A DNA stretch of 20,000 nucleotides from an uncultured virus (IMG/VR IMGVR_UViG_3300045926_000127) (lineage: Duplodnaviria; Heunggongvirae; Uroviricota; Caudoviricetes): the IMG/VR virus record IMGVR_UViG_3300045926_000127; one strand, written 5' to 3'. Both the position numbers and the translations under genes were made by a program. Below, piece after piece: positions 1 through 17,324 of this stretch; the first letter of the stretch is position 1, and every line of letters begins with the position of its first letter. A model generated the notes under the pieces. The model saw only the letters and a list, made by a program, of their open reading frames with translations, was not told the DNA's origin and searched no databases.

Positions 1-696
1 GACCTCCCGCTCGATATCGTCATACTCGGTGGCTTGCTCCGCATTGAGCGTCGCGCCCTCCTCCGATGACATGATCGAAGCCATGCGAGCCACCTTGGCG
101 GCGCGCGAAGCCTCGAAGCCTTGGATCTGCTCTTGAATCGTCTTCATGGGTTGTGCTTTCGATTTTCCCGCGACGCCGGGTGGTTGGGGACGAGCGCCCG
201 CCGACATGCCAGACGCGGCCAGCAGCGGGGCGTCGATTGCTTTGATCGTTTCGATCCGCGCGTCAGCATTCATCGGGATCGTAACGAGCGACAATTCCAG
301 CACTTCACTTTCGATGAAGTGGATACCGCCGTCCTCCATGAACGACAATTCTTTCGGCAGAAAGCCGATTGAGACCGCGCGCACAAGGCCATGCTTGAGC
401 GACTGCCAAGCTTCGTCCACGCGATCCTTTAGCTTGCCCGGCTCCGTGACTTTCGGAATCCGCGCCTCGAATTCGATGCCCTGCTTCGTCGGCTTCTTGA
501 AGCGCGTCTGCCCTATCGGCTCCGCGTGCCGGTGCTGCCAAAGAAGCGGCAAAGGATTTTTGAAGGTGACGCCGAGCGGCTCGATGATGTCGCCCGCTCG
601 ATCAGGCGTCGGCGTCGTGGCAATGCCGGTGATGATTCGCTGGTCCTCATCGACCGCCTTGCATTCGAGGAACGCATAGGCCCGCTGCATGTCCAT
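1..696 (-). CDS. HK97-type prohead protease fused to the major capsid protein N-terminus (partial, runs off the window)
   Basis: Not in the ORF track because no stop falls in the window. Manual translation from ATG 696 (RBS GAGGGG): MDMQRAYAFLECKAVDEDQRIITGIATTPTPDRAGDIIEPLG...PLLWQHRHAEPIG...VRAVSIGF...EVLELSLVTIPMNADA (Peptidase S78-type motifs). The frame continues without a stop into a coiled-coil segment (MKTIQEQIQGFEASRAAKVARM) resembling a capsid delta domain. Confidence 0.88.
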   Translation of the reverse strand, partial: MDMQRAYAFLECKAVDEDQRIITGIATTPTPDRAGDIIEPLGVTFKNPLPLLWQHRHAEPIGQTRFKKPTKQGIEFEARIPKVTEPGKLKDRVDEAWQSLKHGLVRAVSIGFLPKELSFMEDGGIHFIESEVLELSLVTIPMNADARIETIKAIDAPLLAASGMSAGARPQPPGVAGKSKAQPMKTIQEQIQGFEASRAAKVARMASIMSSEEGATLNAEQATEYDDIEREV

Positions 697-710
697 GGAC
701 GACCCCTCTG

Positions 711-2369
711 TCAGACAACGATCACTTGGTACAGTTTTTCTTGTTGCTGTCCGTCCGCTAGCGCGAGCGCCATGACGAGGCAAGATATGCCGTCGATCTT
801 CTCCGACGACCTAGCCTTATCAGGTTTTATATTTCCGTTCGAGTCCTCAAGCTTGGCGACGTTCGACACCATCCAGTCCATGACCGGGTGCCCGCCCGCG
901 TCAATGCGGGCCGAGGCGCAGAGCCGCTCCAATTGCTTCGACGCCCCGCTCAAGGTTTGCACCCCCTGCCGCATCAGCATCAAGGGCACGCCGTCCTTCA
1001 TGAGCGTGTTCACGGTCGCGGTTGCATTGTAGGGGTCGTAACCGATTTGCTTGACCGAGAATGCCTCGACGCCCTGATGGACCGCCTCGATCACAGCGTC
1101 ATAGTCCACAACATTTCCGTGCGTCGGCTCGACCGCCTTGCGCTCCCGCCAAATATCGTAGGGCACGCGGTCGCGCCGCGAGCGCGTCTCGATATTCTCG
1201 GCGGGCACCCAAAAGCGCGGGAGCACGAGCCACTTCTCCTCCTCCGAGCGCGGCGGAAAGAGCCAGAGCACGCACGTCAAATCCGAGACGCTCGACAAGT
1301 CAATTGCGCCATAGCATTCGCGCCCGCGAAGCGCCTCGGCGAAGGAGCGCCAGCGCGCGTCCGCCCCGAGCGAAGGGCGGCCGGAGCCGACGCGCCATTG
1401 CTCGACCGATAGCCAGCGCTGGTCTTGCCCGACCCATAGGTTCAAATGATAGCGCTTGAAATTGTTCTCCACGCGCGGGCTGTTGATCGCCTTCGCATAC
1501 TCCTCGCGCAAATCCGCAAGCTTGATCGAATGCCCGAGGTTCGGATTTGCCTTCGCCCATGTCGTCGGCTCGCGCCAGTCGTCCTCGGCGTCGGGCGCAT
1601 AGATCACCACCAGCGTATTCGGAATATCGAAAGTGCCGTCCGCGATCTTAAGCGATTCCTCCCACAGCACCCACCCATGGCTCTTACGCGCTTGCCCGGC
1701 CGTGCTGATGAGAATGTCGAGCGGCTCCTCCCGCGATAGCTCGGACTGGTGCACGAACTCATAGAGATCGCCGTTCCGCCACTCGTGCATTTCGTCGCCG
1801 ACGAGAATGGAGCACGAGAGCCCGTGCTTGCCCTCGCTCGCGCCAGTGAGCGGGCGGATCACCGCGCCGAGCGCCGTGCAATAAAGCGAGGTCTTGAGCG
1901 CGTCGACATATTTCGGGAGCGACGGCGAGAATTGCACCATACGCACGGCGCGCTGAAAGACGATCTGCGCTTGCTTCTCGGTCGAGGCAATGATGTAAGC
2001 CTCGCCGCCGAGCTCGCCGTCGAATAGCCAAGCGAGGAGCATCAGCCCGGCGGCAAACTCGCTCTTGCCATTCTTGCGGCCCATCCAGATCAGCACGCGC
2101 CGATAAAGCCGCGTGCCGTCCTTGCGCTTGAGGCCGAAGAGCATCGAGACAATGGCCGCCTGCCAGTCGCGAAGCACAAACTTTTTCTTCGTCCAGCGCC
2201 CGGTCGTCATGCGCAAATAATTCGGAAAGAATTGCACGGCGATCTTGGCGGCGCGCTCGTCATACCAAACGCCGGGCTGGCTCACGGCGCGGAGCCATTC
2301 GCCTTCGACCCATTTGTGCACGGGGTTGCGCGAGAGCGCATCGAGCCATTTCGGACGCGCGGGCGACAT
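711..2369 (-). CDS. terL: Terminase large subunit (HK97/Terminase_1 type)
   Basis: Walker A GRKNGKS, Walker B LVGDEMH, ISTAG coupling motif, W.KANPNLG, nuclease-domain GAIDLS, YDPYNA and KIDG motifs. Confidence 0.97.
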   Translation of the reverse strand: MSPARPKWLDALSRNPVHKWVEGEWLRAVSQPGVWYDERAAKIAVQFFPNYLRMTTGRWTKKKFVLRDWQAAIVSMLFGLKRKDGTRLYRRVLIWMGRKNGKSEFAAGLMLLAWLFDGELGGEAYIIASTEKQAQIVFQRAVRMVQFSPSLPKYVDALKTSLYCTALGAVIRPLTGASEGKHGLSCSILVGDEMHEWRNGDLYEFVHQSELSREEPLDILISTAGQARKSHGWVLWEESLKIADGTFDIPNTLVVIYAPDAEDDWREPTTWAKANPNLGHSIKLADLREEYAKAINSPRVENNFKRYHLNLWVGQDQRWLSVEQWRVGSGRPSLGADARWRSFAEALRGRECYGAIDLSSVSDLTCVLWLFPPRSEEEKWLVLPRFWVPAENIETRSRRDRVPYDIWRERKAVEPTHGNVVDYDAVIEAVHQGVEAFSVKQIGYDPYNATATVNTLMKDGVPLMLMRQGVQTLSGASKQLERLCASARIDAGGHPVMDWMVSNVAKLEDSNGNIKPDKARSSEKIDGISCLVMALALADGQQQEKLYQVIVV

Positions 2370-2370
2370 A

Positions 2371-2958
2371 TCAATGATACTTGCCTATCCCGATGGGTGA
2401 GGGCAACTCTCCCGGCGCGCTCTTGCCCTCCTCCTCGATCTCTCCCGCTACGTTCTCGCCGAAGAAGCCGCCGAGAGCCGCTGGCGTTTGCGCCAAGCCG
2501 CGCACAATGGCATGGCGAGCAACGGGGTTCAGCCCGAGCCGATCCTCCGAAGCGAGGAGCACGCGCTCGATATCGAGCATGTCCTTGAACACCGGGTTGC
2601 GGATATAGCGCTCGCCATGGTTCGTGACGATCTTGAGGAATGTCAGCTTGCCCGAGAGCAACTCCTTGCACTCTAGCCAGCGGTGCACGTAATGCGCCCA
2701 GCGGCCATAAGCCGTGACATCGACCTCGTGCGCAATGCGCCGCTGTAGATAGCCGTCAATGACGCGGTGAAAAATTTCGCGCTCGCGCGGCTCCTTCAAG
2801 AAGTCCGGAGCAATGAGCGGCGTCGGCGACGGCGCCAACGCCTGTTGGAGCACCTTGTTCTCGCGCTCGTCGCCGCGTGATAGTATCGGCCGCCGTCCCG
2901 GATTCCCTTGCAAGCGCTCAAGCGTTGCGGACTTCGGTTTCGGTCCTCGCCTTCCCAT
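2371..2958 (-). CDS. terS: Terminase small subunit (P27 family)
   Basis: MGRRGPKPK...LQGNPGRRP N-terminus, NP...LGLNPVAR motif, GAGGA RBS before ATG 2958, directly upstream of terL. Confidence 0.92.
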   Translation of the reverse strand: MGRRGPKPKSATLERLQGNPGRRPILSRGDERENKVLQQALAPSPTPLIAPDFLKEPREREIFHRVIDGYLQRRIAHEVDVTAYGRWAHYVHRWLECKELLSGKLTFLKIVTNHGERYIRNPVFKDMLDIERVLLASEDRLGLNPVARHAIVRGLAQTPAALGGFFGENVAGEIEEEGKSAPGELPSPIGIGKYH

Positions 2959-2974
2959 GTCAGTCCTCACTCAT

Positions 2975-4832: not shown

Positions 4833-4866
4833 CGCTTGCTACCGGCTGTGTCGCATGCAGACCTGC
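4833..4866 (+). promoter_or_regulatory. Putative promoter, module 3
   Basis: CGCTTGC-N14-CATGCAGACCTGC. Confidence 0.65.
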
Positions 4867-4871
4867 GCGCA

Positions 4872-4906
4872 TGCCGGAGGGGTTCCGGCAATTCAAACCA
4901 GAAGGA
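4872..4906 (+). promoter_or_regulatory. G-loop hairpin plus RBS, copy 4
   Basis: TGCCGGA-GGGGT-TCCGGCA followed by CCAGAAGGA. Confidence 0.75.
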
Positions 4907-4914
4907 TCAAAGCT

Positions 4915-6081
4915 ATGACCAAGACCATCACGAAGACCGCGCCGAAGGCCAAGGGCAAGGGCACACCCGCCGACCAAGGCATTGCGGCGGCCAAGGCCGA
5001 CGACGCCGCCCGCGACGCCGCCAAGGCGAAGAAGGCCGAGAAGAACGGCCACCTCATGGCCGCCAAGGCGGCGGCGGCCAAGGCGAAGGGGAGCGCGGTG
5101 CCTATGCTCTCGGCGCTCTTTCCCTTCGCGGGCGGTTGCCCGGCCCTGACCTCCGACCCGAAAAAGGAGGGCATCCCGGAATTCCTCCAAACGCAAAACC
5201 GCCCGGCGGTCGACGCCGCCTCGGCGAAGGTCAAGGCGGCCATGCCGCCGAAGCCGGAGGCGAAGCCGGAGCCGAGCGCCGACGACAAGGCGCGCGAGGA
5301 GATCAGGGCGGAGCGCTCGGCCTTGGCGAAGGCGAAGAAGGCCGGAGCCAAGGAGCGCAAGGCGGCGGAGGCGAGCGGCGCCACCAAGGCCATGCCGCTC
5401 ACCGGCAAGGCCGCGCTGGCGGCGATCAAGCGGGCCGACCGCAAGCTCCGCAAGGAGGAGGCCGAGGCGGCGGCCGAGGTTGCCGAGATCGAGTATAGGG
5501 ACGCGCGGCGGGCGGCGGCGATCAAGCGGGCCGACAAGGCCATCGCCAAGGCGGAGAAGGCGGAGAAGGCGGAGAAGGCGGCGAAGGCGGGGCCGAAGCT
5601 CCTCACGGACGCTCTGAATGGCCGCCGGAGCATTGGCGAGCCGGCCAAGCGGGAGGGCACCGCGCCGCTCCCCAAGCAAACCGACAAGGAGACTGTTGCT
5701 ATGGTTGCGAAGGCATTGAAGGCGAAGAAGGCGGCCGAGGCCAAGGCGGAGAAGGCCAAGGGCAAGGCGGCTAAGGCGGCCAAGGCGGAGAAGCCCGCCA
5801 AGGCCAAAAAGCCCACCAGCGCCCACGCTGGCGAGCGGGCGCGCTATCCTTGGCGCGAGGCGGAGGAGGCGGCGGCAAAGGGCAAGATCATGGCCGCCCC
5901 GGACTTCTCGGCCGAGACCCACACGCGCTTCCGGCCGCACATGGCGCTCATTGTGGAGGCGGCCAAGGCGAAGGACTTGAAGGCCCTTCGCGGGCTCAAG
6001 TGGGACGGCTTCCTCTCCTCGACGCCAAAGGCCATGGAGCGCTACCGGGCCATTTGCATCGCGGCGCTCTCGGCGAAATAA
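4915..6081 (+). CDS. Lys/Ala-rich histone H1-like protein, 388 aa, with a globular C-terminal domain
   Basis: AAKA/AEK low-complexity repeats with consistent GCG/GCC/AAG codon use; RBS GAAGGA; C-terminal YPW...PDFSAETHTRFR...SSTPKAMERYRAICIAAL domain; followed by a terminator. Confidence 0.85.
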   Translation: MTKTITKTAPKAKGKGTPADQGIAAAKADDAARDAAKAKKAEKNGHLMAAKAAAAKAKGSAVPMLSALFPFAGGCPALTSDPKKEGIPEFLQTQNRPAVDAASAKVKAAMPPKPEAKPEPSADDKAREEIRAERSALAKAKKAGAKERKAAEASGATKAMPLTGKAALAAIKRADRKLRKEEAEAAAEVAEIEYRDARRAAAIKRADKAIAKAEKAEKAEKAAKAGPKLLTDALNGRRSIGEPAKREGTAPLPKQTDKETVAMVAKALKAKKAAEAKAEKAKGKAAKAAKAEKPAKAKKPTSAHAGERARYPWREAEEAAAKGKIMAAPDFSAETHTRFRPHMALIVEAAKAKDLKALRGLKWDGFLSSTPKAMERYRAICIAALSAK

Positions 6082-6495: not shown

Positions 6496-7215
6496 CTAAC
6501 CAAGCACGTTCCAGAACAGCGCCCGATTCTTGGCGAGCGCCGACGCTAGCTCCCACGCCTTACGATCATAATTCGCGCAGGACGGAAATGGCGCGTGCGA
6601 CCGCGTGGCTTGCTCGAAGCGATAGGCGCAGCGGTGCATCACCACATTGCCACCGAAGGCTTGCGCCTCATGGCGCGAGGCCAGCCCGACCGCGACGGCA
6701 TGCACCGCGGAATCCGGGAACGCCCGGCTCAAGCAGCGCGCCAGCATACCCGAGCCCGCCGCGCACCACACCTCCGGCGGCGAGCCACCGATGGCTTTGC
6801 GGACCTCACGCATGGCCTCGGTGAACGGCTCCTCCGCCTCCGGCACATCGAAGCCGAGCGGCAAGAACAGCGCGCCAGCGCTCGCCGCATAGGCGCGCGC
6901 CTTCGCCTGCACATTGGTCATGTAGCCGGGTGTGACCTCGACGATCTTGGCGCCGTTGCGCTTGGCCGCGATCTGGCGCGCATGCCAGCACGAGCGCTTG
7001 GCATAGAACAGCGTGATGCGCTGGCCGCTCTCCCGGCCGATCACCGAGAGCGCATAAGGCGCGCCGCCACAGAACGGCCCGCCGAATACGACCTCGCTCG
7101 CGCCGCGAACGAGAAACGGCAGGAAGCGCATTTTGCTGCCACCTTCGAGGAGATCGTCCCGCACCACGCGGAGCCGCCCGTGCTCCTCGATCAGCGGAGC
7201 GGCGGGCGCCTTCAT
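6496..7215 (-). CDS. PLP-dependent enzyme, fold type II (ACC deaminase/D-cysteine desulfhydrase/TrpB-like), compact phage version
   Basis: VVRDDLLEGGSKMR (compare KRDDL...GGNKxR, the PLP-lysine motif), GAKIVEV, CAAGSGMLA phosphate-binding loop, NYDRKAW, LFWNV; ATGA overlap with the upstream gene. Confidence 0.82.
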   Translation of the reverse strand: MKAPAAPLIEEHGRLRVVRDDLLEGGSKMRFLPFLVRGASEVVFGGPFCGGAPYALSVIGRESGQRITLFYAKRSCWHARQIAAKRNGAKIVEVTPGYMTNVQAKARAYAASAGALFLPLGFDVPEAEEPFTEAMREVRKAIGGSPPEVWCAAGSGMLARCLSRAFPDSAVHAVAVGLASRHEAQAFGGNVVMHRCAYRFEQATRSHAPFPSCANYDRKAWELASALAKNRALFWNVLG

Positions 7216-8387
7216 GCCGCCGCCCGAATAAGATCACGCACCCTTTCGTTGGCGAAACAGTCGATCACCAGGTGCACGCGGTCCACAGTCGGATCGGTGT
7301 TGCGCACTGCATGCGGCTTGCGCTGGTCGAGATAGCACAGCGCGCCTTGCGGGAGATTCCGCTCGAGCTTATTGCCGCGCGCTCCCCAGCCATAGAACGT
7401 CACCGCCGGGCTGGTGCGTATCGGCACATGCAAGCGCGAGACGAAGCCGTTCGCGGTGCCCGCCTCGCGGTCGGTAATATCCGCGTGCCGCGATAGCTCG
7501 CCGTCCTTTGCACGCAGCCGCATGAAACGCACACGATCAAATTCGAGTTCGCCGAGTTGCCCGAGCGCTGACAGCGTGCTCGGGAATTGCGCCGAGGCGC
7601 GCGTCCAGCGTGGGCGCTCCTTGAGCGCGGCCGGGTGCGCCTCTTTCCATGCCTTCGACATTTCGGCTGGCTTGACGATATCGCCGGGCTCGTCGCTATA
7701 GCCGCGCAAAGCGAAGGAGGTCCACGACTTGCGCTTGTTGTAGTCGCTGTAGTGCTGCGCGAACGCCTCCTCGCCATAAGCGTCGAGTTCGCCGTTGATC
7801 TCCGCCAGCGCTTGCGCGCTTAGGAAAACGCGGTCGAGCACCGCGAGCGTCACGGTATCCTCCGGCGCTTGCTCGGCGAGCAGCGGCGCCTTGAAGCCAT
7901 GGGTGTAGAGCCCCTTGATCTCCGAACCCGCCGATATCTTTGTGCCCGCATAGCGCAAGCCCGAGGCCAGCACCGCCGCCTTGGCGATATCGTCCTCCTC
8001 GAATATCTCGAACAGCACCGGGTGGCCTTTCGCCTTGCTGACCAGCGCCGACGCCACCTTGTGGGCGCTCTCCGCATCGCGCGCCGCGAAGGCTTTCACC
8101 ACAACCGTCATGGACGGCACATGGAAAGGCCGCTGCGCGAAGTCCTGTTGCTCGCTCGCTTGCTTCGTCACCATGAAGATCGCCACCGCTCGCGGCGGCT
8201 CGCCGGTCCAGAGCACGCGCGCTTGCGCGAGCGCCTCCGCGATGTCGCGCTCCTTGGTCAAGCCGAAGGCGCCGAACACCAGCGACTTGTGCCGCTCCTT
8301 GAACGGCGCCGCCAGCGCCTTGAGCCATTCGAGCGTGAAGCCTCGCTGCCATTCGGCAAGCTGGTCGCCGAGCACCGCCTCCGTCAT
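7212..8387 (-). CDS. Fusion of an N-terminal GNAT-like domain and a C-terminal AspH-family 2OG-Fe(II) dioxygenase
   Basis: C-terminal half: RVRFMRL...HAD (HxD)...RLHVPI...KPHAVRN (distal His)...DRVHLVID (2OG-binding Arg). N-terminal half: VLFEIFEEDDIAKAAVLASGLRYAG resembles the GNAT motif B region (weaker call). Confidence 0.78.
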   Translation of the reverse strand: MTEAVLGDQLAEWQRGFTLEWLKALAAPFKERHKSLVFGAFGLTKERDIAEALAQARVLWTGEPPRAVAIFMVTKQASEQQDFAQRPFHVPSMTVVVKAFAARDAESAHKVASALVSKAKGHPVLFEIFEEDDIAKAAVLASGLRYAGTKISAGSEIKGLYTHGFKAPLLAEQAPEDTVTLAVLDRVFLSAQALAEINGELDAYGEEAFAQHYSDYNKRKSWTSFALRGYSDEPGDIVKPAEMSKAWKEAHPAALKERPRWTRASAQFPSTLSALGQLGELEFDRVRFMRLRAKDGELSRHADITDREAGTANGFVSRLHVPIRTSPAVTFYGWGARGNKLERNLPQGALCYLDQRKPHAVRNTDPTVDRVHLVIDCFANERVRDLIRAAA

Positions 8388-9406
8388 ACCGCGCCTCCTT
8401 GCATCATGAGGATCGCCGGATGCTCCGGCTCGCCCGTGCCCATTTCGACCGGGCCGATATTATCCGCCGCCTTGCGCGGGTCGCCCTTCGCGAAGATCAA
8501 GACATTCTGATGCGTCTTACCCAGCTTGCGCGAAGTCTCGAATTGCTTGCGCACGCGGAACGGCAACGACCCGGCGGCTGTGACGAGGATCGCCTCGTTG
8601 TAAAGCTTGAGCCCGGCCGCCTTGAAAGCGACGCATGTATGCTCCGGTATCCCGTAATAGAAGCCGTCGGCGTCGCGCGCATCGCCGACCACGAAGCATG
8701 CGAAACGATCGTCGCGCAATTGCGCGCAAGCGTTGGCAATGATTTGCCCGAGCACTTCGCGAAACCGCGGATACTCCATGGTGCTGATATCGCGCGGGTC
8801 GTCGCTGTAGACTTCAAGATCCGCATAGGGCGGGCATGAGAACACGAAGTCGGCGCGGGCATTCTTCGTAAGGGCCTTTAGATGAAGGCTGTCGCCGCTT
8901 ATCCACTCGGGCTGATGCTTCTCCTCGCCGCAGATTACCCGCGCTTGGCGCCGGTTAGCTTCACATTGCTCCTCGCGGAGATCGACACCGAGATAGCGGC
9001 GACCAAGCTTGCTCGCGACAATGCCGCGCACGGAGCCGCCAGCGAAGGGATCGAGGACCAGCCCGCCGGGCGGACTAAACCAGCGGCACATAAGTTCACA
9101 CAGCACTGGATCAAAGATCGACGTGCCCGAGGCGCTCGCTGTGGTTTGCGGGTCGCTTCCGTCATACGGGTGGATTGTCGTGCCGAGCGCGAGCCCACCG
9201 TTAAGTGATGCGCTTTGCTGTAGCCGCGCTCGATTGCGCGCCATCTCTTCGTTCTTCTGCTGCCAGATTCCGCCGCCGCCGCCCGCTGGCTTGGCGTTCG
9301 CTTGGCGGCTCCGCTTCTTGCCCTTCTTCGGCTCGACGTTGAAAAACGTCGCGCCCTTCTTACGCGGGCCGAGCGTTTTGTGTTTTGTCTTTAGTCCTTT
9401 TGGCAT
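8384..9406 (-). CDS. Phage DNA amino-methyltransferase (N4C/N6A-type catalytic domain)
   Basis: GTSIFDPVLCE, VLDPFAGGSVRG (motif I), GVDL, FSCPPY (motif IV), KTHQNVLIF; Lys/Gly-rich N-terminal linker. Confidence 0.9.
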   Translation of the reverse strand: MPKGLKTKHKTLGPRKKGATFFNVEPKKGKKRSRQANAKPAGGGGGIWQQKNEEMARNRARLQQSASLNGGLALGTTIHPYDGSDPQTTASASGTSIFDPVLCELMCRWFSPPGGLVLDPFAGGSVRGIVASKLGRRYLGVDLREEQCEANRRQARVICGEEKHQPEWISGDSLHLKALTKNARADFVFSCPPYADLEVYSDDPRDISTMEYPRFREVLGQIIANACAQLRDDRFACFVVGDARDADGFYYGIPEHTCVAFKAAGLKLYNEAILVTAAGSLPFRVRKQFETSRKLGKTHQNVLIFAKGDPRKAADNIGPVEMGTGEPEHPAILMMQGGAV

Positions 9407-10076
9407 GGCGCTTGAACCGCTCGTTGTAGGCTTCGCCGTCGAGCCTCACGCTATCGGAAAACTTCAAGAGGTTTTCGCCGCGCCCTAGCTCGCTCTGAAT
9501 GCCGAGCGCGAGCCATGCGCGCTTGCGATCTTGCCACCAGCCGTCGCGCGCATTGAACACCGAGAAGGGCACGCCGCCGAAACTCTCCGCCAGCTTCTTG
9601 CGCGCTTGCTCGGGCGTCACCGGCTCGGCCGGGTCTTGGCTGTGCCCAGCAACGAAGGCGGCGAGCGCTTGCTCGGTGAAGCCGAGCGCCATCATGTCGA
9701 ACTCGGCCAGCGCCAGCTTGCCGAGCTCGGCGCTCAACATCGGAATGTCCCAGTCGCTCATCAACGCATACTGGTTGTCGATAATGCGGTAGCTGGACTT
9801 CTCCTCCTCCGACCAACCCTCGGCAATACACACCGGAACCGACTTGAGCCCGAGGCGCTGCGCGGCGAGGAATCGGCCGTGCCCATAGATCAGCACGCCT
9901 AGCTCGTCGGCGAGGAGCGGCGAGGCAAAGCCGTAGCGCGCAATGCTCTCGGCGATCTTGCCGACTTGCTCCTCGCTGTGCGCGCGCGGGTTCTTGTCGT
10001 AGGGCGTGAGGCTTTCGAGCGGGCGCCGCTCGACCTTGTCGGCGGGCCAAGGCCGCAATTCAGTGGCCGTGCTCAT
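9360..10076 (-). CDS. ParB/Srx-like N-terminal domain protein carrying the N-terminal part of the methyltransferase module
   Basis: LTPYDKNPRAH, SIARYGF, IYGHGRFLAA, IIDNQ motifs; C-terminal FGGVPFSVFNARDGWWQDRKRAWLALGIQSELGR; GGAG RBS before ATG 10076. Confidence 0.88.
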   Translation of the reverse strand: MSTATELRPWPADKVERRPLESLTPYDKNPRAHSEEQVGKIAESIARYGFASPLLADELGVLIYGHGRFLAAQRLGLKSVPVCIAEGWSEEEKSSYRIIDNQYALMSDWDIPMLSAELGKLALAEFDMMALGFTEQALAAFVAGHSQDPAEPVTPEQARKKLAESFGGVPFSVFNARDGWWQDRKRAWLALGIQSELGRGENLLKFSDSVRLDGEAYNERFKRHAKRTKDKTQNARPA

Positions 10077-10099
10077 GAGCGGTGCTCCGAGGAGAAGGC

Positions 10100-10250
10100 G
10101 GGAGAGCAGAAGCGCTGGTGGCAGGCCAACATGCCGGGTGACGTGCTGGCGGGGTTTGCTAGCGGCACTTCGGCAGCGCTCCAAGGCTCCAGAAGGAGGG
10201 GACCCCGTAAGATCGACCTCTTAACATTCCTCAAAGCGCTGTGCTCTCCC
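10100..10250. ncRNA. Candidate structured RNA/leader element
   Basis: Long-range stem GGGAGAGCA-ga-AGCGCT (10100-10116) with AGCGCT-g-TGCTCTCCC (10235-10250); nested CGGGGT/ACCCCG stem and CTCC-agaa-GGAG hairpin. Confidence 0.35.
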
Positions 10251-11881: not shown

Positions 11882-12077
11882 TGGTCGCTGTCTCCTCTAC
11901 TAGCTCCAAGTCCAAGTCGATTTGCTCCATGCTCTCGCGCACGGTGATGACCGAGCCATCAACGAGCGCGATGCGCGTGGCGGACGTTTGCCCACTTCGT
12001 TCGAGAAAAATTATCGCCGAAGTTGTGACGATCACCGGGCCGCCGCTGGCGAGCGTCAGGTGGATTCGCTTTCTCAT
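11874..12077 (-). CDS. FlbD/SwrD-like small protein (second copy)
   Basis: IHLTLASG...TRIALVDGSVITVRESMEQI; ATGA overlap with helicase; GGAGG RBS. Confidence 0.65.
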   Translation of the reverse strand: MRKRIHLTLASGGPVIVTTSAIIFLERSGQTSATRIALVDGSVITVRESMEQIDLDLELVEETATNG

Positions 12078-13702
12078 TTGAAGTCCTCCAAATCCTCCTC
12101 GGAGCAAAGCGTGCCGGGCACCAGTCCATTTCGTTCGGCGTTATTGCGTGGGGCGACTGGTGCCCGTATGGCGCGCATCACCTCGCTTTCGGCCGCTTGG
12201 TTAGCTCTCGATCTGCTCTCGGCGATCCAGCGCGACCGCAGCCATTGTCCAGTCGCCGGGCTCATGTTCATAATTGGCGCCACATCCTTGTTCACGGGCC
12301 AGTGCTCTAGCCGCTCCTTGAATTTGTGCGCCGCCCAGCCCTCCTTGTATCCCTTCATGATCGCGTAGCCCTTTAGCTCCGCGTAGAAAATCGCCTTCTC
12401 GGCTGGCGTAAACTCCTTTTGCCGCCTGCCCTTCTCGTCATATTTGCCGCGCTTCGCTTTGCCTTGGAACGCGGCTAGCTCCGCGCCGGTAAATTCCTTC
12501 GGCGGCGGCGGCGGCTTGGTCCTAAAGCCGCAGTTGGGGCACTCGACGACGCTATAGCCTTTGACAAATTTGCACTTCGGACAAACGCGCGGCAATTGCA
12601 CCGTCGCTGGCGCGCTCACGGCGAAGCGCCCGCCATGCAAGCCGTCATGGACAATTTGCCAAGCGAAGCCGAGCCGGGTGTGCGTATCGCTATGGTCAAG
12701 CACGAGGAGCCGCTCCTTGCCCTTCGATATGCGGAGCCCGCGCCCGATATTTTGCACGAACCTGATCTCGCTTTTCGTCGGCCGCGCATAGCTGATGACC
12801 TCGATCTCGGGCCAGTCAATGCCGACGCCGATCACATCGACATTGCACACGACCTCGACGGCGCGGCTCTTGAATTGCTCGTAGAGTTCCGCCCGCTCAT
12901 TGAGCGGCGTGCGGCAGTCCATATAGCCAGTGCGCACGCCCGCCTCGATAAAGCGCGCTTGCAATGCCTTCGCATGGTTGCGATCCACCGCGAAGCATAT
13001 GGTCGGCTTACGCTCCGCCTTCGCCAGCCACGTTTGCACGATATCCGCGACCAGCTTGCTTTGGTTCATGGCCTCGGCGAGATCGGTTTGCACGAACTCT
13101 CCGCCGACGCTCCGCACGTCCTTGAGGTCGGGCGAGGTCGGCGCGAACACCACGCCCGGCGAGAGCACGCCGCGCTTCATCAAATCCTCGGCGCACACCG
13201 TTTGCACCAGCGTTTGATAGACCCGCGCGAGCCCGCGCGACCATGGCGTCGCGCTCAAGCCGATTTGTGGAACGCTCCGCCATTCGGGGTCGGTCATCCA
13301 GCGAATGTCGAATTTGAAAAGCTTGTGCGCCTCGTCGCGGATTACAACATCGGCTCGCGGAATGAAGTCGCGCGACTCGAGCGTTTGCACCGAGCAAATC
13401 TGGATCGGCTTGAGTGCATCGGCGCCGTCGCCGCGCTTGCCTTGCACGATGCCGATCTCGTTGGCGCTCAAGCCTTCGCGCAAGAAGGCGTCCCGCGTTT
13501 GGTCAATAAGACTGATGCTACTCACCTCAAAAATCAGTCGCTTGGATTTTGCCCGCGCGCCGAGCGCAATGTGCGCCGCGATCAGCGTCTTACCGGCGCC
13601 GGTCGGGCTCGTGAGCATGATCCTCCGATATCCCTCCGCCAGCTTCTCCCTCGTCTGTTGCAGCATTGCGGATTGGTAGTCGCGCATCGAAGAGGCTACC
13701 AT
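12074..13702 (-). CDS. SF2 DEAH-box helicase with C-terminal zinc ribbon (RadD/YejH-like phage replication helicase)
   Basis: SPTGAGKT, DEAH, SAT, GIDWP, QNIGRGLR; CPKC...CPNC; GYKEGWA tail. Confidence 0.95.
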   Translation of the reverse strand: MVASSMRDYQSAMLQQTREKLAEGYRRIMLTSPTGAGKTLIAAHIALGARAKSKRLIFEVSSISLIDQTRDAFLREGLSANEIGIVQGKRGDGADALKPIQICSVQTLESRDFIPRADVVIRDEAHKLFKFDIRWMTDPEWRSVPQIGLSATPWSRGLARVYQTLVQTVCAEDLMKRGVLSPGVVFAPTSPDLKDVRSVGGEFVQTDLAEAMNQSKLVADIVQTWLAKAERKPTICFAVDRNHAKALQARFIEAGVRTGYMDCRTPLNERAELYEQFKSRAVEVVCNVDVIGVGIDWPEIEVISYARPTKSEIRFVQNIGRGLRISKGKERLLVLDHSDTHTRLGFAWQIVHDGLHGGRFAVSAPATVQLPRVCPKCKFVKGYSVVECPNCGFRTKPPPPPKEFTGAELAAFQGKAKRGKYDEKGRRQKEFTPAEKAIFYAELKGYAIMKGYKEGWAAHKFKERLEHWPVNKDVAPIMNMSPATGQWLRSRWIAESRSRANQAAESEVMRAIRAPVAPRNNAERNGLVPGTLCSEEDLEDFK

Positions 13703-14486
13703 AATCGTCTCCCTGCTCCTTTTTCCGTTGGCTTGCTAAAGTCTGATTCCTTTGACCGACATCGACATGAGGCGTGGTGGGCTCCGGCTCGCCACGCCTT
13801 CGATGCTCCTCCACTTGCTTTCGCGGTAGATGGGCGAAACAGAAATGCCGGTCGCCGAAGCCGAAGGCGGCCACCTTTCCGCACGAATACGCTTCGCAAA
13901 TATATTCCGCGAGCCGCCGAGGCGCGGAGGTAATGCGCTCGGCAAGCACCGCGTCATTCTCGCCCGGCCATATCAGCGAATCGAAATGCACGTCGCCGTC
14001 GCGCATGGCTTGCAAAGGCACAACGCGGCAACGCGAGCGGTTGCGCTGCTCGGTGAACGTCGCCGGGAATTCCTCGACATGGCGAACGAACCAGCTTCGC
14101 AGCCGCTGGAAATTGAACAGGTATCCGCGCGCCGCCTCGCCGAGCGCGCAATGGACATACAGCAGCAAGTCATAGTCGCCGGTCCACATCCAGCCGTTCC
14201 GCTCATATCCTTCGACCACGCATGATTCGGTTTCGAGCGTGAGCGCAGTGTAAGGATCGTGCGGGTTGCGATGGCGCGGACGGACGATTTTCTCTTCGAT
14301 GCCGATCACGTCTCCGCTATGCCGCCAGACCAGCGTATCGCCGCGCGTTTGCTCCGGCCCGACCTCCTTCTTCGACTTGCGATATGCCTTGATGAGCCCG
14401 GCGCGGAATATCCGCTCGTAGATCGGCGCGAGGAGCCGCGCCCGCTGTTCCTCTTGCCATTCATCGTCGCGCTGGAATTGGCTCAT
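13590..14486 (-). CDS. Putative PD-(D/E)xK restriction-endonuclease-like protein with a C-terminal Cys/His finger
   Basis: QTRGDTLV...IGIEEKIVR...LETES...GWMW...DLLLY pattern; C-terminal CEAYSC...FC.AH; ATGA overlap with the MT-A70 gene. Confidence 0.6.
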   Translation of the reverse strand: MSQFQRDDEWQEEQRARLLAPIYERIFRAGLIKAYRKSKKEVGPEQTRGDTLVWRHSGDVIGIEEKIVRPRHRNPHDPYTALTLETESCVVEGYERNGWMWTGDYDLLLYVHCALGEAARGYLFNFQRLRSWFVRHVEEFPATFTEQRNRSRCRVVPLQAMRDGDVHFDSLIWPGENDAVLAERITSAPRRLAEYICEAYSCGKVAAFGFGDRHFCFAHLPRKQVEEHRRRGEPEPTTPHVDVGQRNQTLASQRKKEQGDDYGSLFDARLPIRNAATDEGEAGGGISEDHAHEPDRRR

Positions 14487-15484
14487 GGCTCCTCCACCCA
14501 TAGCGGAGCGAAGCCCTCGCGCTTCTCGCGCTGATTCCCTTCGCCGTACGGAGGATAGGAGGCGGCGCGAACGATCTCATAGAACTTGTCGGGCTTCTCG
14601 CTATGCGCTCCGCGCGGCGCCTCGAACCATGTCGCAATGCTCGAAGCGGCCGGGCGCGTCGTCGTCTCGCCGAACGTCGCAAAAATGACGTGCTCGGTAT
14701 CGTTGCGGAAATAGGAGCCCAGCCCGAACGGCGGCGGCTTATGCCATGTCAGAATTGTGCGATGCTGAAAGCCCCAACCCTCGATCAGCTTGCCAGCCTC
14801 GTACATGAAATTGTTGGTCACCCAGCAATAGAGATGCGTGCCGCTCTCATGGTCGCACCATTGCTTGAGGTCGAGCGCGCGCAATTGGTCGAGCGACTGC
14901 ATGGCGTAGCCGGGCTTCGCGCGGCCAGCAATTGAGAGCCAGTCGTACTCCCACGCCGGGTCGATCACGAGCGTGCGATATATGCCCGGCTTCGGCACCA
15001 GCTTGAGCACGCGCTCCTCGTCGGCTTTGACGCGAGCGAGGCGTAGCTCCTTGCTGACATCCGAGCGGCCCATGTCCGACCTGATCGTCCCGTCGCGCAA
15101 TAGCTTGCCGAAGGTTCGGTCGTCGAGCCGGGTCAGCAAATAGAGGGTGTTGTATGAGCCCGGCAAAACGTTATCACTGATAACGTTTTGAAGCCGCTCG
15201 CTCCGCGTCACGATCATGATCATGCGTGCGGTCATCGGGGAGAACTCTAGGTCGTCGCGGACCATTTGCTGAAACTCGCCATGCGGCAACTCCTCCTTAT
15301 CCGCCATCAACTGGCGGCCGATAGCGAACACGCCCTCGACTGTGTTGGTCTGAAACTCCCGCCACATTGCATTCAAGCGGCTTGCGCGTTGCTTGCGCGT
15401 TGCCGCCTTGTCCCTCTTGCGCGGCGGGAGCACCACAACATTGCCGCGCCTCGGCGGTATTGGCAGCTTGGTCGCCCTCGCCAT
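14483..15484 (-). CDS. MT-A70 family adenine methyltransferase with a DUF3102-like N-terminal domain
   Basis: YRTLVIDPAW, LYCWVTN, WGF...LTWHK, GLGSYFRNDTEH, HSEKP; N-terminal IGRQL..KEELPHGEF...MTARMIM. Confidence 0.9.
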   Translation of the reverse strand: MARATKLPIPPRRGNVVVLPPRKRDKAATRKQRASRLNAMWREFQTNTVEGVFAIGRQLMADKEELPHGEFQQMVRDDLEFSPMTARMIMIVTRSERLQNVISDNVLPGSYNTLYLLTRLDDRTFGKLLRDGTIRSDMGRSDVSKELRLARVKADEERVLKLVPKPGIYRTLVIDPAWEYDWLSIAGRAKPGYAMQSLDQLRALDLKQWCDHESGTHLYCWVTNNFMYEAGKLIEGWGFQHRTILTWHKPPPFGLGSYFRNDTEHVIFATFGETTTRPAASSIATWFEAPRGAHSEKPDKFYEIVRAASYPPYGEGNQREKREGFAPLWVEEP

Positions 15485-16644: not shown

Positions 16645-17034
16645 TCATGGCCCGAGCACGGCGCGCGCTTGCGCCCAGCTTTCATAAAACTCGACCTCGG
16701 GCATGCTGTGAAAAACATTCTCGCGATAGCCGACCACGATCACCCGCTTATGCAAGGCCAGCGCTATGCCAAACTCGACATGCCGCCCGCCGCGATTACT
16801 CGACGGCGCGCGCGGCTCCTCTGTGAAGGAGATCACACAGTCGGCCAGCAAGACGTCGCTGTAGTCCTCATAGGCGAAGCGCGCCCGCTCCTCCGCCGGG
16901 TGATCGCGGTCGGCAATTTGATGCCCGCCATTGACCCAGCGCGACGTGACGAAATGCCCGAACGCCTTTAGCTCCTCGCGCTTCTCTTGCATTTCGGCGA
17001 GGCGCGAATAGCGAGCCGCGAGATAGATCAGCAT
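16645..17034 (-). CDS. Nucleoside 2-deoxyribosyltransferase / dNMP N-glycosidase-like protein
   Basis: IYLAA, D...ADCVI, GGRHVEFGIA (catalytic Glu), KRVIVVG..ENVFH. Confidence 0.82.
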   Translation of the reverse strand: MLIYLAARYSRLAEMQEKREELKAFGHFVTSRWVNGGHQIADRDHPAEERARFAYEDYSDVLLADCVISFTEEPRAPSSNRGGRHVEFGIALALHKRVIVVGYRENVFHSMPEVEFYESWAQARAVLGP

Positions 17035-17111
17035 CAGCGATACCCCGTTGTCAGCATGAGAATTGCCAAGATCACGACCGTTGCGATCAGCATGAGAAGG
17101 ATCACGCGCAT
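17034..17111 (-). CDS. 25-aa single-TM microprotein (absent from ORF track)
   Basis: MRVILLMLIATVVILAILMLTTGYR; TGATG coupling to the NDT-like gene. Confidence 0.58.
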   Translation of the reverse strand: MRVILLMLIATVVILAILMLTTGYR

Positions 17112-17117
17112 TTCGGC

Positions 17118-17324
17118 TCATCCCTTCACAAACGGCTCGCTCGGCAACGGCCTCGGCGGCGCCGGGTCGTCCTTGCGCGGCGGAAAGCGCTTGTCGAATT
17201 CCTCCAACGCATGATCCGCCCACTGGGACGGCGTTGCTCCCGAAGGCCCGCCCGAGCGCCCGATGGCTTCCGCAAACACCCGCATCCAAAACTTCACCCG
17301 CAATTTCTCCCGCTCGGTGGTCAT
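17118..17324 (-). CDS. Hypothetical protein, 68 aa
   Basis: ATGA-coupled ORF in the operon. Confidence 0.65.
   Translation of the reverse strand: MTTEREKLRVKFWMRVFAEAIGRSGGPSGATPSQWADHALEEFDKRFPPRKDDPAPPRPLPSEPFVKG

Follow-up and report, generated by a model that had tools for sequence, protein, structure and literature searches.

A methyltransferase-like enzyme coupled to three amino-acid-reshaping enzymes points to an undescribed decoration of phage DNA

Phage DNA hypermodification by post-replicative tailoring is a known kind of system, in which complex modifications are reached from 5-hydroxymethyl-pyrimidines, from 7-deazaguanines or by C5-cytosine alkylation. In phages M6 and ViI, glycine or serine is placed on 5-hydroxymethyl-uracil by a kinase and an amino-acid:DNA transferase, and amino-acid:nucleobase conjugates within DNA are the substrates of the pyridoxal phosphate (PLP)-dependent decarboxylases M6 gp52 and ViI gp226 (Lee et al. 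2021, PMC8989533). The parts of that work drawn on here give C-alpha-glycinyl-thymine as the substrate of M6 gp52 in DNA and K36 as its proposed aldimine lysine, and describe PaMx11 gp48, a GNAT-type enzyme, as acetylating an amine carried by a DNA base (PMC8989533). Here, we analyse a module of four genes at positions 6,496 to 10,076 of a 20,000-nucleotide stretch of DNA, hereafter the window, from an uncultured virus of the Caudoviricetes (IMG/VR record IMGVR_UViG_3300045926_000127). The genes encode a ParB-like protein, a transferase resembling the amino-methyltransferases that depend on S-adenosylmethionine (SAM), a fusion of a GNAT domain to an AspH-like 2-oxoglutarate (2OG)/Fe(II) oxygenase, and a small PLP enzyme of fold type II. 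The last two proteins are enzymes of the kinds that “sculpt” DNA-attached amino acids, and their coupling to a DNA-methyltransferase-like enzyme points to an undescribed decoration of the phage's own DNA. Literature searches found no published description of a module of this composition. In the gene orders given below, MT or MTase denotes the methyltransferase-like gene, GD the GNAT-oxygenase gene and PLP the fold-II PLP gene; loci are numbered with the prefix L and proteins with the prefix P.

A second group of described systems links a ParB protein to base modification. ParB-dependent thymine dioxygenases need their ParB partner for activity on double-stranded DNA (O'Toole et al. 2026, PMC13229309). 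The gene set given for them, in the part of the source that covers it, is exemplified by gp1-gp4 of Mycobacterium phage LilMcDreamy. In this phage (L101), gp1 (ParB), gp2, gp3 and gp4 are followed by genes for the small and large terminase subunits (TerS and TerL). LilMcDreamy gp3 is an ADDT protein (PF18724, 2.7e-12, above the cut-off), while gp2 (855-1787) carries an HRD...H motif and has a single, weak Pfam signal, for Tet_JBP (17.7 bits, below the cut-off); its annotation as a queuine transglycosylase, derived from phrog_6059, may be wrong. The fourth protein, gp4, is the best BFVD match of the window GNAT-oxygenase (E 5e-36, TM 0.81/0.86, 377 columns) and its full-length structural homologue. 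The window module resembles these clusters in that a ParB-like protein and a base-modifying enzyme lie beside the terminase. However, in LilMcDreamy-type clusters thymine is modified by a TET/JBP-type dioxygenase and an ADDT, whereas the base modifier of the window is a SAM-dependent transferase, and the window oxygenase is AspH-like, unlike the TET/JBP-like oxygenases of the thymine dioxygenase clusters.

Other systems supply a precedent in enzyme logic alone. The microcin C enzyme MccE has a GNAT domain, and its decarboxylase is of fold III, unlike the fold-II PLP protein of the window; the 2OG hydroxylase TYW5 acts on a 3-amino-3-carboxypropyl (acp) chain. In microcin C, the methyltransferase-like MccD transfers acp and the PLP decarboxylase MccE gives aminopropyl, with the order of steps left open in the part of the source that deals with them; MccD is stimulated when its by-product methylthioadenosine (MTA) is removed, and Tyw2, a relative of Rossmann-fold methyltransferases, transfers acp to a nucleic-acid base (PMC10491745). 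The logic is the one that we propose for the module, but these enzymes act on a peptidyl-nucleotide and on tRNA, whereas the substrate proposed here is DNA. Among phage enzymes, CmoX of cyanophage S-B43, a DNA methyltransferase homologue, transfers a non-methyl group from a modified SAM; the parts of the source that describe the CmoX/CmoA pathway list ParBc proteins as frequent neighbours and later enzymes that extend the handle (PMC12783734). CmoX is a C5-cytosine enzyme using carboxy-SAM from CmoA, unlike the amino-methyltransferase-like enzyme of the window, and no CmoA homologue was found among the window proteins in the Pfam scan.

The four genes form a compact operon (Table 1). The ParB open reading frame (ORF) is open over 9360-10184 on the minus strand, and the ATG at 10076 is backed as its start by the N-terminus of the relative at L015. 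The ParB and MTase ORFs overlap by 47 nt in different frames. An ATGA overlap at 8387-8384 (minus strand) places the MTase stop on the GNAT-oxygenase start, which is preceded by AAGGAGG at 8400-8394 (minus strand), the whole forming a translational-coupling junction (8384-8400). A second ATGA at 7215-7212, on the same strand, couples the GNAT-oxygenase and PLP genes. The module region is identical in a 5.4-kb IMG/VR contig, and a 29-kb viral record that is 63% complete has 76% of sampled words in common with the window. The domain assignments, motifs and operon structure given in the original prediction, a reading of the letters of the window, are confirmed by the Pfam and PHROG assignments, the AlphaFold2 (AF2) folds, the invariant residues and the reading of the ATGA junctions.

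The module recurs in soil, freshwater and marine phage contigs, and its repeated appearance, across about 90 loci and as natural fusions, exceeds chance. We analysed 92 related loci (9 from IMG/VR, 3 from metagenome-assembled genomes (MAGs) and 80 out of 376 metagenome relatives), a set that was not de-replicated and includes several near-duplicates. Loci were scored with hidden Markov models (HMMs) built for the module genes, and the counts are lower bounds: the PLP gene of L002, for instance, was missed, and Pfam finds PALP proteins adjoining the oxygenase in L002 and L044. Among the 29 loci that extend 2 kb or more on each side, a PLP gene lies within 2 kb in 24, an MTase gene in 20, both in 17 and neither in 2 (L047 and L054). 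Spacing is close, as the PLP start is at most 150 nt away in 45 of the 73 loci with at least 800 nt downstream of the GNAT-oxygenase, and the MTase end at most 250 nt away in 40 of the 67 loci with at least 800 nt upstream. Gene orders vary while clustering is kept: beside the order ParB-MT-GD-PLP, ParB-MT-PLP-GD is found in L012 and L050, and GD-PLP...ParB-MT in L020, L021, L028 and L043. The same pairings hold down to approximately 30% identity. The original prediction hung on the co-occurrence of the genes in other phages, and they do co-occur, rearranged yet clustered, and fused.

Fusions were met in many forms. A search for longer homologues yielded 13 proteins, and mapping was extended to 132 further proteins among the best 150 representatives, plus P0246; 18 of these 133 are at least 500 aa long. 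Five proteins (P0248, P0331, P0335, P0350 and P0367) are single polypeptides with the arrangement ParB-MT(N)-PLP-GD-MT(C), and two (P0252 and P0352) have the arrangement ParB-MT(N)-GD-MT(C). The insertion site in the MTase is constant and corresponds to window residue ~160, between the helix that follows strand 2 and strand 3. Tandem ParB-MT-PLP-GD polypeptides (P0334 and P0364) also exist, as do ParB-MT-GD polypeptides (P0246, P0247, P0249, P0251, P0341, P0356, P0357 and P0377, together with a 993-aa ORF in L068), GD-MT (P0242, P0243 and P0245), GD-ParB-MT (P0253) and PLP-GD (P0265). Because the gene set recurs in several orders and as single polypeptides, including insertion inside the methyltransferase, the four parts belong together as one machine, and natural fusion is the strongest evidence that they form one unit.

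Judged by sequence, the PLP protein is a homologue of M6 gp52, the DNA-acting decarboxylase. It matches phrog_7093 (“threonine dehydratase”) at 1.8e-31, the same PHROG for which M6 gp52 is the archetype (2.2e-159), and the profile of its family aligns with M6 gp52 over the full length (hhalign probability 99.3%, E 4e-20, 223 columns), pairing K28 of the window protein with K36. BLAST joins M6 gp52 to members of the family at up to 31% identity, also over the full length, and a C-terminal signature, PFPC..YD.KAW..FWN.G, is common to both. The likeness to the PLP enzymes of ViI and M6, drawn in the original prediction as an analogy, is thus a real homology in the case of M6 gp52, although the window protein is approximately 40 residues shorter. 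Its AF2 model (predicted local distance difference test score, pLDDT, 94.6) matches the two-domain fold II. The top structural match, 1j0a, an ACC-deaminase homologue (Z 24.2, rmsd 2.3, all 239 residues aligned; this and the following structural matches are from VIA), is also the template reported for ViI gp226 (PMC8989533). Further fold-II matches are 4d97, a D-cysteine desulfhydrase (Z 23.6), and 1rqx (Z 22.9). The Schiff-base lysine K28 and residues S155 and G156 are invariant across 43 sequences of the family. The window protein falls below the PF00291 gathering score (30.5 bits vs 35), a domain that its relatives carry. Searched against the PDB, the family profile retrieves O-acetylserine sulfhydrylase at 3e-6, and the single sequence (phmmer) yields chance matches to ribosomal L21 only.

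The 391-aa GNAT-oxygenase has no match in Pfam (E<=1), PHROG or NCBIfam. An AF2 model built on 51 homologues (pLDDT 94.8) reveals two domains. Residues 17-166 adopt a GNAT fold (2pc1, Z 12.4, rmsd 3.5, 146 aligned; further matches 9mto, Z 11.3, 3bln, Z 11.2, and 4kvm, 11.1). Residues 172-386 form a double-stranded beta-helix (DSBH) with 4p7x as a match (Z 16.5, rmsd 3.0, 181 aligned), and Foldseek matches it to 4p7w in the PDB (E 2e-10). The DSBH is nearer to AspH (8re5, Z 15.5, rmsd 3.1, 170 aligned) than to AlkB (~11.7). The HxD...H triad and the arginine (H301, D303, H359 and R370) are invariant across the 51 aligned sequences, 45 of which match PF05118, the AspH family (best 1.2e-16), a match that the window protein itself lacks. 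A word-indexed search found 375 family members at E<=0.001 among 8000 scored candidates, and an exhaustive profile search of 1.84 billion representatives found 395 clusters at E<=1e-30, a number that rises to 1001 at 1e-10 and to 2845 at 1e-3. The family is nearly absent from prokaryote genomes, with 3 loci, all on MAG contigs, in a collection of 185,579 species.

Some GNAT-oxygenases differ in architecture or surroundings. P0288 (624 aa) has an insert of approximately 240 aa without assignment between its GNAT half (1-200) and its oxygenase half (438-623), and P0034 (577 aa) has a Cys-rich C-terminal extension, with no MTase or PLP gene nearby. No MTase or PLP gene lies nearby either in L054 (7418-9760), where the GNAT-oxygenase gene is flanked by genes for the anti-restriction protein ArdA and for a primase-polymerase (Prim-Pol), or in L047 (2013-3987), where it follows the gene for a DUF3109-like Cys-rich protein. 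In a marine clade (L002, L005, L087 and L092), the GNAT-oxygenase/PLP pair is found among SbcCD-like, peptide deformylase and ThyX genes, with up to four PF13759 2OG oxygenases nearby and an MTase that has SPPY, not CPPY.

The ParB protein matches PF02195 just above the cut-off (26.6 bits vs 26.3), phrog_15396 at 1.3e-48 and positions 26-219 of phrog_498, a profile of fused ParB-MTases. A nucleotide-binding-type GxxR motif, GHGRF, occupies residues 65-69 (9870-9884), and residues ~150-210 correspond to the conserved linker found ahead of the MTase in relatives where the two proteins are fused. ParB and MTase are a single ORF in 38 related loci, so that the four-gene operon of the original prediction, while present, is the split form of what is one fused ParB/MTase gene in most relatives. 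We rejected a frameshift or sequencing error as the source of the split, since it is also present in the nearest relatives (L015, L058 and L027), which have in common a conserved MTase N-terminus, ANAxPxGGGGG. The C-terminal “...LGGEV” tails of ParB/MTase relatives were likewise considered as docking peptides and rejected, as they are best read as the Shine-Dalgarno sequence of the next gene (GGAGG) in frame, with a counterpart in the window at 8400-8394.

The MTase matches phrog_12517 at 1.8e-92, phrog_498 at positions 341-611 and PF01555 (50.9 bits), the last over the C-terminal profile positions 170-218 only. Because the order of motifs is reversed in the phmmer alignment with 2zie (residues 98-159 on chain 220-282, residues 171-245 on chain 27-102), the protein reads as a circular permutant of the beta class, with motif I ahead of motif IV. 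Motif IV has Cys in SCPPY at the usual D/N/S position, and the marine clade has SPPY. Conservation is low over the N-terminal ~90 aa, which are rich in Lys, Arg and Gly, and the signature [ST]CPPY...DLExY runs through the whole family. Orphan relatives in phrog_498, such as Enterococcus phage phiFL3A gp36 and Listeria phage B054 gp77, have the same ParB N-domain, linker and permuted MTase at 46-48% identity; they share the motifs SIFDP, DPFAGGS, [ST]CPPY and DLEVY, and likewise lie just upstream of terminase genes. In contrast to these orphans, the window has ParB and MTase split and two accessory genes in addition. To our knowledge, the group that this ParB-fused orphan family transfers has not been determined.

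Seen from the MTase side, the ParB-MTase family proves much larger, and the PLP and GNAT-oxygenase genes are optional additions to it, a point on which the original prediction needs correction. We collected 79 IMG/VR loci (56-67% identity, out of 483 relatives) and counted the 67 with at least 2 kb downstream. PLP is the only accessory in 25, two carry PLP and GNAT-oxygenase, and one carries the GNAT-oxygenase only. The genes that follow accessory-free MTases encode terminases of at least four unrelated Pfam types; the conserved feature is therefore the position just before the packaging genes. On a FastTree phylogeny of 106 MTase domains, from which rows with a split or partial HMM match and accessory-free loci without flanks were dropped, PLP presence requires 24 changes (shuffled mean 29.6, minimum 24) and GNAT-oxygenase presence 12 (shuffled mean 35.8, minimum 26; 200 shuffles each).

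Reduced versions are found in cultured phages. Microcystis phage Mae-JY30 has the three genes ParB, MT and PLP, and the PLP part is inserted within the ParB-MTase in Erythrobacter phages vB_EliS_R6L and ZS04 and in Pseudanabaena phage Pam4. In Mycobacterium phage Vincenzo, gp1 (ParB-MT) is followed by gp2, annotated as a “carboxylate deaminase” (PF00291, 2.5e-10); Mycobacterium phage AlanGrant also carries ParB-MT together with PLP. The genome paper of R6L labels gp1 only as a “DNA modification methylase”.

An enzyme that attaches amino acids to DNA was sought in these systems. No ADDT, TET/JBP or thymidylate-synthase-like gene was found among the scanned ORFs of the window, nor in the 29-kb record, where the control genomes were likewise silent for ADDT and TET/JBP. 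Among four complete genomes of cultured ParB-MT-PLP phages, none has PF18724 (ADDT) and none has a transferase like M6 gp51, with the LilMcDreamy and M6 controls positive, respectively. The scans of the window, of the 29-kb record and of the four genomes are consistent with the statement of the original prediction that no hydroxymethylase, kinase or amino acid:DNA transferase is recognizable; neither the kinase nor the transferase of M6 and ViI is detectable here, and the partner of the PLP enzyme is instead the amino-methyltransferase-like enzyme. Given the three-gene ParB-MT-PLP modules, the lack of an amino-acid-attaching enzyme leaves the MTase-like enzyme as the only possible installer. 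Since SAM itself carries an alpha-amino-acid arm, we infer the transfer of acp.

The four genes would then constitute one DNA-modifying machine acting on the phage's own DNA around packaging. The ParB domain would bring the transferase to double-stranded DNA or activate it there, and the permuted CPPY enzyme would use SAM as the donor of an amino-acid arm instead of, or besides, methyl. In the proposed first step, acp would be placed on a nitrogen of a base, an exocyclic amine being the likeliest, with the release of MTA, and the PLP enzyme would decarboxylate this alpha-amino acid to aminopropyl; in an alternative order, the PLP enzyme would decarboxylate SAM first, and aminopropyl would then be transferred. 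The AspH-like domain would hydroxylate a carbon of the side chain and the GNAT domain would acylate the free amine, giving a bulky, charge-altering side chain that may shield the DNA from restriction. We put forward this sequence of acp or aminopropyl transfer, PLP decarboxylation, hydroxylation and N-acylation tentatively, at somewhat less than an even chance. A pair of genes in Croceibacter phage P2559S (L102, 3386-5027) fits it as an anecdote: gp66, an MTase homologue (36% identical), overlaps gp67, a SAM (AdoMet) decarboxylase (PF02675, 2e-19) that may take the place of the PLP decarboxylase without being homologous to it. The AdoMet decarboxylase was rejected as a recurrent partner: none of the 84 proteins encoded downstream of MTases without accessories is one, and cyanophages commonly carry speD.

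The alkylation from SAM, decarboxylation, hydroxylation and acylation of the original prediction is the reading that the evidence best supports, and several points weigh against it. The motifs of the MTase are those of amino-methyltransferases, and acp as the group moved is a prediction. In 39 of the 67 IMG/VR loci counted from the MTase side, neither accessory is present, and the stand-alone phiFL3A gp36 and B054 gp77 also have the CPPY/DLExY signature. No alignment column splits accessory-linked from stand-alone MTases (the best is R, 0.69 vs 0.20), from which it follows that acp transfer holds for the whole family or for none. The window PLP protein is only ~22-23% identical to M6 gp52, and its reaction type may differ. 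Enzymes of the GNAT type carry Q/RxxGxG/A after beta-4 as the acyl-CoA binding signature; inspection of residues 95-118 of the GNAT domain by eye shows no obvious acetyl-CoA motif of this kind, and GNAT Pfam matches, all weak, are shown by only 3 of the 51 relatives. GNAT-oxygenases occur without PLP in L027, L082 and L088 and stand apart from any MTase in L047 and L054, and the adjacency of an MTase and an AdoMet decarboxylase is a single case.

Some of these points would be accommodated if the enzyme were an ordinary N6-adenine or N4-cytosine methyltransferase and the accessories elaborated the N-methyl group, or another base, by other chemistry. For example, the oxygenase could turn N-methyl into a reactive hydroxymethyl or imine that is then captured, and the GNAT domain could acylate the result. 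The motifs and Pfam/PHROG assignments, the many family members without accessories (39/67) and the likeness of the DSBH to AlkB-type N-methyl oxidases (Z ~11.7) agree with this account, as does the clustering of the GNAT-oxygenase on the MTase tree (12 vs 35.8 changes), which is expected of a lineage-specific add-on. However, a homologue of an amino-acid decarboxylase would have no substrate on a methylated base; the 25 loci with PLP as the only accessory show that PLP does not depend on the oxygenase; and AspH and proline hydroxylases outscore AlkB (Z 15-16.5 vs ~11.7). We consider an ordinary methyltransferase unlikely.

Alternatively, the DNA is only methylated and the accessories act on small molecules, removing or converting S-adenosylhomocysteine or SAM so that the methyltransferase can go on working, or producing and modifying polyamines that are packaged with the DNA. 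PLP enzymes and SAM decarboxylase act in SAM and polyamine metabolism, GNATs include polyamine acetyltransferases, the P2559S pair would fit, and the module lies beside terminase genes of many unrelated types. The stimulation of MccD by removal of MTA provides a parallel (PMC10491745). Yet the fusion of PLP and GNAT-oxygenase to the ParB-MTase, or their in-frame insertion into it, is hard to explain for enzymes of free metabolites, the nearest characterized relative of the PLP enzyme acts on DNA, and a homologue of the GNAT-oxygenase is found in a DNA hypermodification cluster. A role confined to small molecules thus seems improbable to us.

A protein target is also conceivable, as proteins or free amino acids are the substrates of those AspH-family and prolyl-hydroxylase matches that have been characterized, and most GNAT chains matching residues 17-166 are N-acetyltransferases of proteins or small molecules. 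The AspH-like/GNAT protein would then modify the ParB-MTase, the terminase or a capsid protein, and PLP would be a separate metabolic gene. We regard this as very unlikely, since the GNAT-oxygenase is linked and fused to a DNA transferase and not to structural genes, its LilMcDreamy context is a DNA-base pathway, and the co-variation of PLP with this MTase family does not depend on the oxygenase. That the accessories are selfish or accidental passengers without joint function, either insertions in methylase genes or morons before the terminase, is scarcely credible. Phage methylase genes are described, in the part of the source concerned, as taking up inteins, homing endonucleases and further in-frame insertions (PMC9957025), and PLP is scattered on the MTase tree (24 vs mean 29.6, minimum 24). 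The inserts, however, are not nucleases but conserved enzymes whose catalytic residues are intact; the same enzymes are also encoded by separate genes with translational coupling and by fusions of more than one order, and the pairings persist to ~30% identity.

Outside the module, the window includes packaging genes, a helicase, a second DNA methyltransferase and a nucleoside 2-deoxyribosyltransferase-like gene (Table 1). In L160, a DUF4406/NDT-like gene likewise comes after a ParB-MTase. Just downstream of the PLP gene, on the opposite strand (4855-6081, plus strand), lies a gene for an Ala/Lys-rich protein of 408 aa that has no family match and may be a histone-like DNA-binding partner. In tBLASTn searches, its C-terminal ~80 residues are found beside the module in L015, L021, L050, L073 and L078, mostly on the opposite strand, and L018 and L022 match it only in its middle part (residues ~97-191).

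Table 1 Features of the window. Positions refer to the 20,000-nucleotide stretch, and empty cells mark entries for which no value is given.
Feature	Position	Strand	Remarks
Prohead protease	1-783		Window, Pfam scan
TerL	711-2369		Window, Pfam scan
TerS	2371-2970		Window, Pfam scan
Minimal fold-type-II PLP enzyme	6496-7215	-	239 aa
FWNVLG motif, PLP enzyme	6499-6516	-	
PFPSC motif, PLP enzyme	6577-6591	-	
AGSGM motif, PLP enzyme	6745-6759	-	
GGSKMR motif (K28), PLP enzyme	7126-7143	-	
GNAT + AspH-like 2OG/Fe(II) oxygenase fusion (GNAT-oxygenase, GD)	7212-8387	-	391 aa
AspH-like 2OG/Fe(II) oxygenase domain (DSBH)	7230-7874	-	Residues 172-386
RVHLVID motif (R370), oxygenase	7260-7280	-	2OG-binding Arg
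KPHAVRN motif (H359), oxygenase	7299-7319	-	
RHADITD motif (H301, D303), oxygenase	7470-7490	-	
GNAT-fold domain	7890-8339	-	Residues 17-166 of the 391-aa protein
SAM-dependent amino-methyltransferase-like transferase (MTase)	8384-9406	-	340 aa
DLEVY motif, MTase	8807-8821	-	
Motif IV SCPPY, MTase	8825-8839	-	Residues 190-194
Motif I DPFAGGS, MTase	9032-9052	-	Residues 119-125
SIFDP motif, MTase	9107-9121	-	
ParB/Srx N-terminal-domain protein	9360-10076	-	238 aa counted from ATG at 10076
Helicase, ResIII/Helicase_C	12074-13702	-	C-terminal CPKC...CPNC zinc-ribbon-like motif, long basic tail
Second DNA methyltransferase, MT-A70 with DUF3102	14483-15484	-	Pfam scan
Nucleoside 2-deoxyribosyltransferase-like protein	16645-17289	-	Sub-threshold, 25 bits vs 28.8 cut-off

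Within phage DNA hypermodification, three variants are new: a SAM-linked amino-methyltransferase as the entry point, the architectures that arise by fusion and insertion, and the joining of GNAT to AspH. Because amino-acid-sculpting enzymes, one of them homologous to a DNA-acting decarboxylase, are coupled to an amino-methyltransferase-like enzyme, the module predicts a route that would start from SAM itself and would be aimed at a base nitrogen. Extended to the whole family, this reading is possible but doubtful: the permuted CPPY ParB-“methyltransferases” would not be methyltransferases, and would provide the first known transfer of acp or aminopropyl to DNA bases, with the PLP decarboxylase and the GNAT-oxygenase sculpting the arm into a family of undescribed aminoalkyl DNA hypermodifications. 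If true, acp transfer to DNA would be a new chemistry and the products a new class of DNA chemistry, with a bearing on restriction evasion, on artefacts in virome sequencing and on enzymes for site-directed DNA aminoalkylation; reduced versions are at hand in the cultured phages Vincenzo, R6L, Pam4 and Mae-JY30. It would also give a function to a very common, unexplained phage gene, the ParB-MTase before the terminase, and would concern the whole family that occupies this position in hundreds of phage lineages, including cultured phages of Listeria, Enterococcus, Mycobacterium and cyanobacteria.

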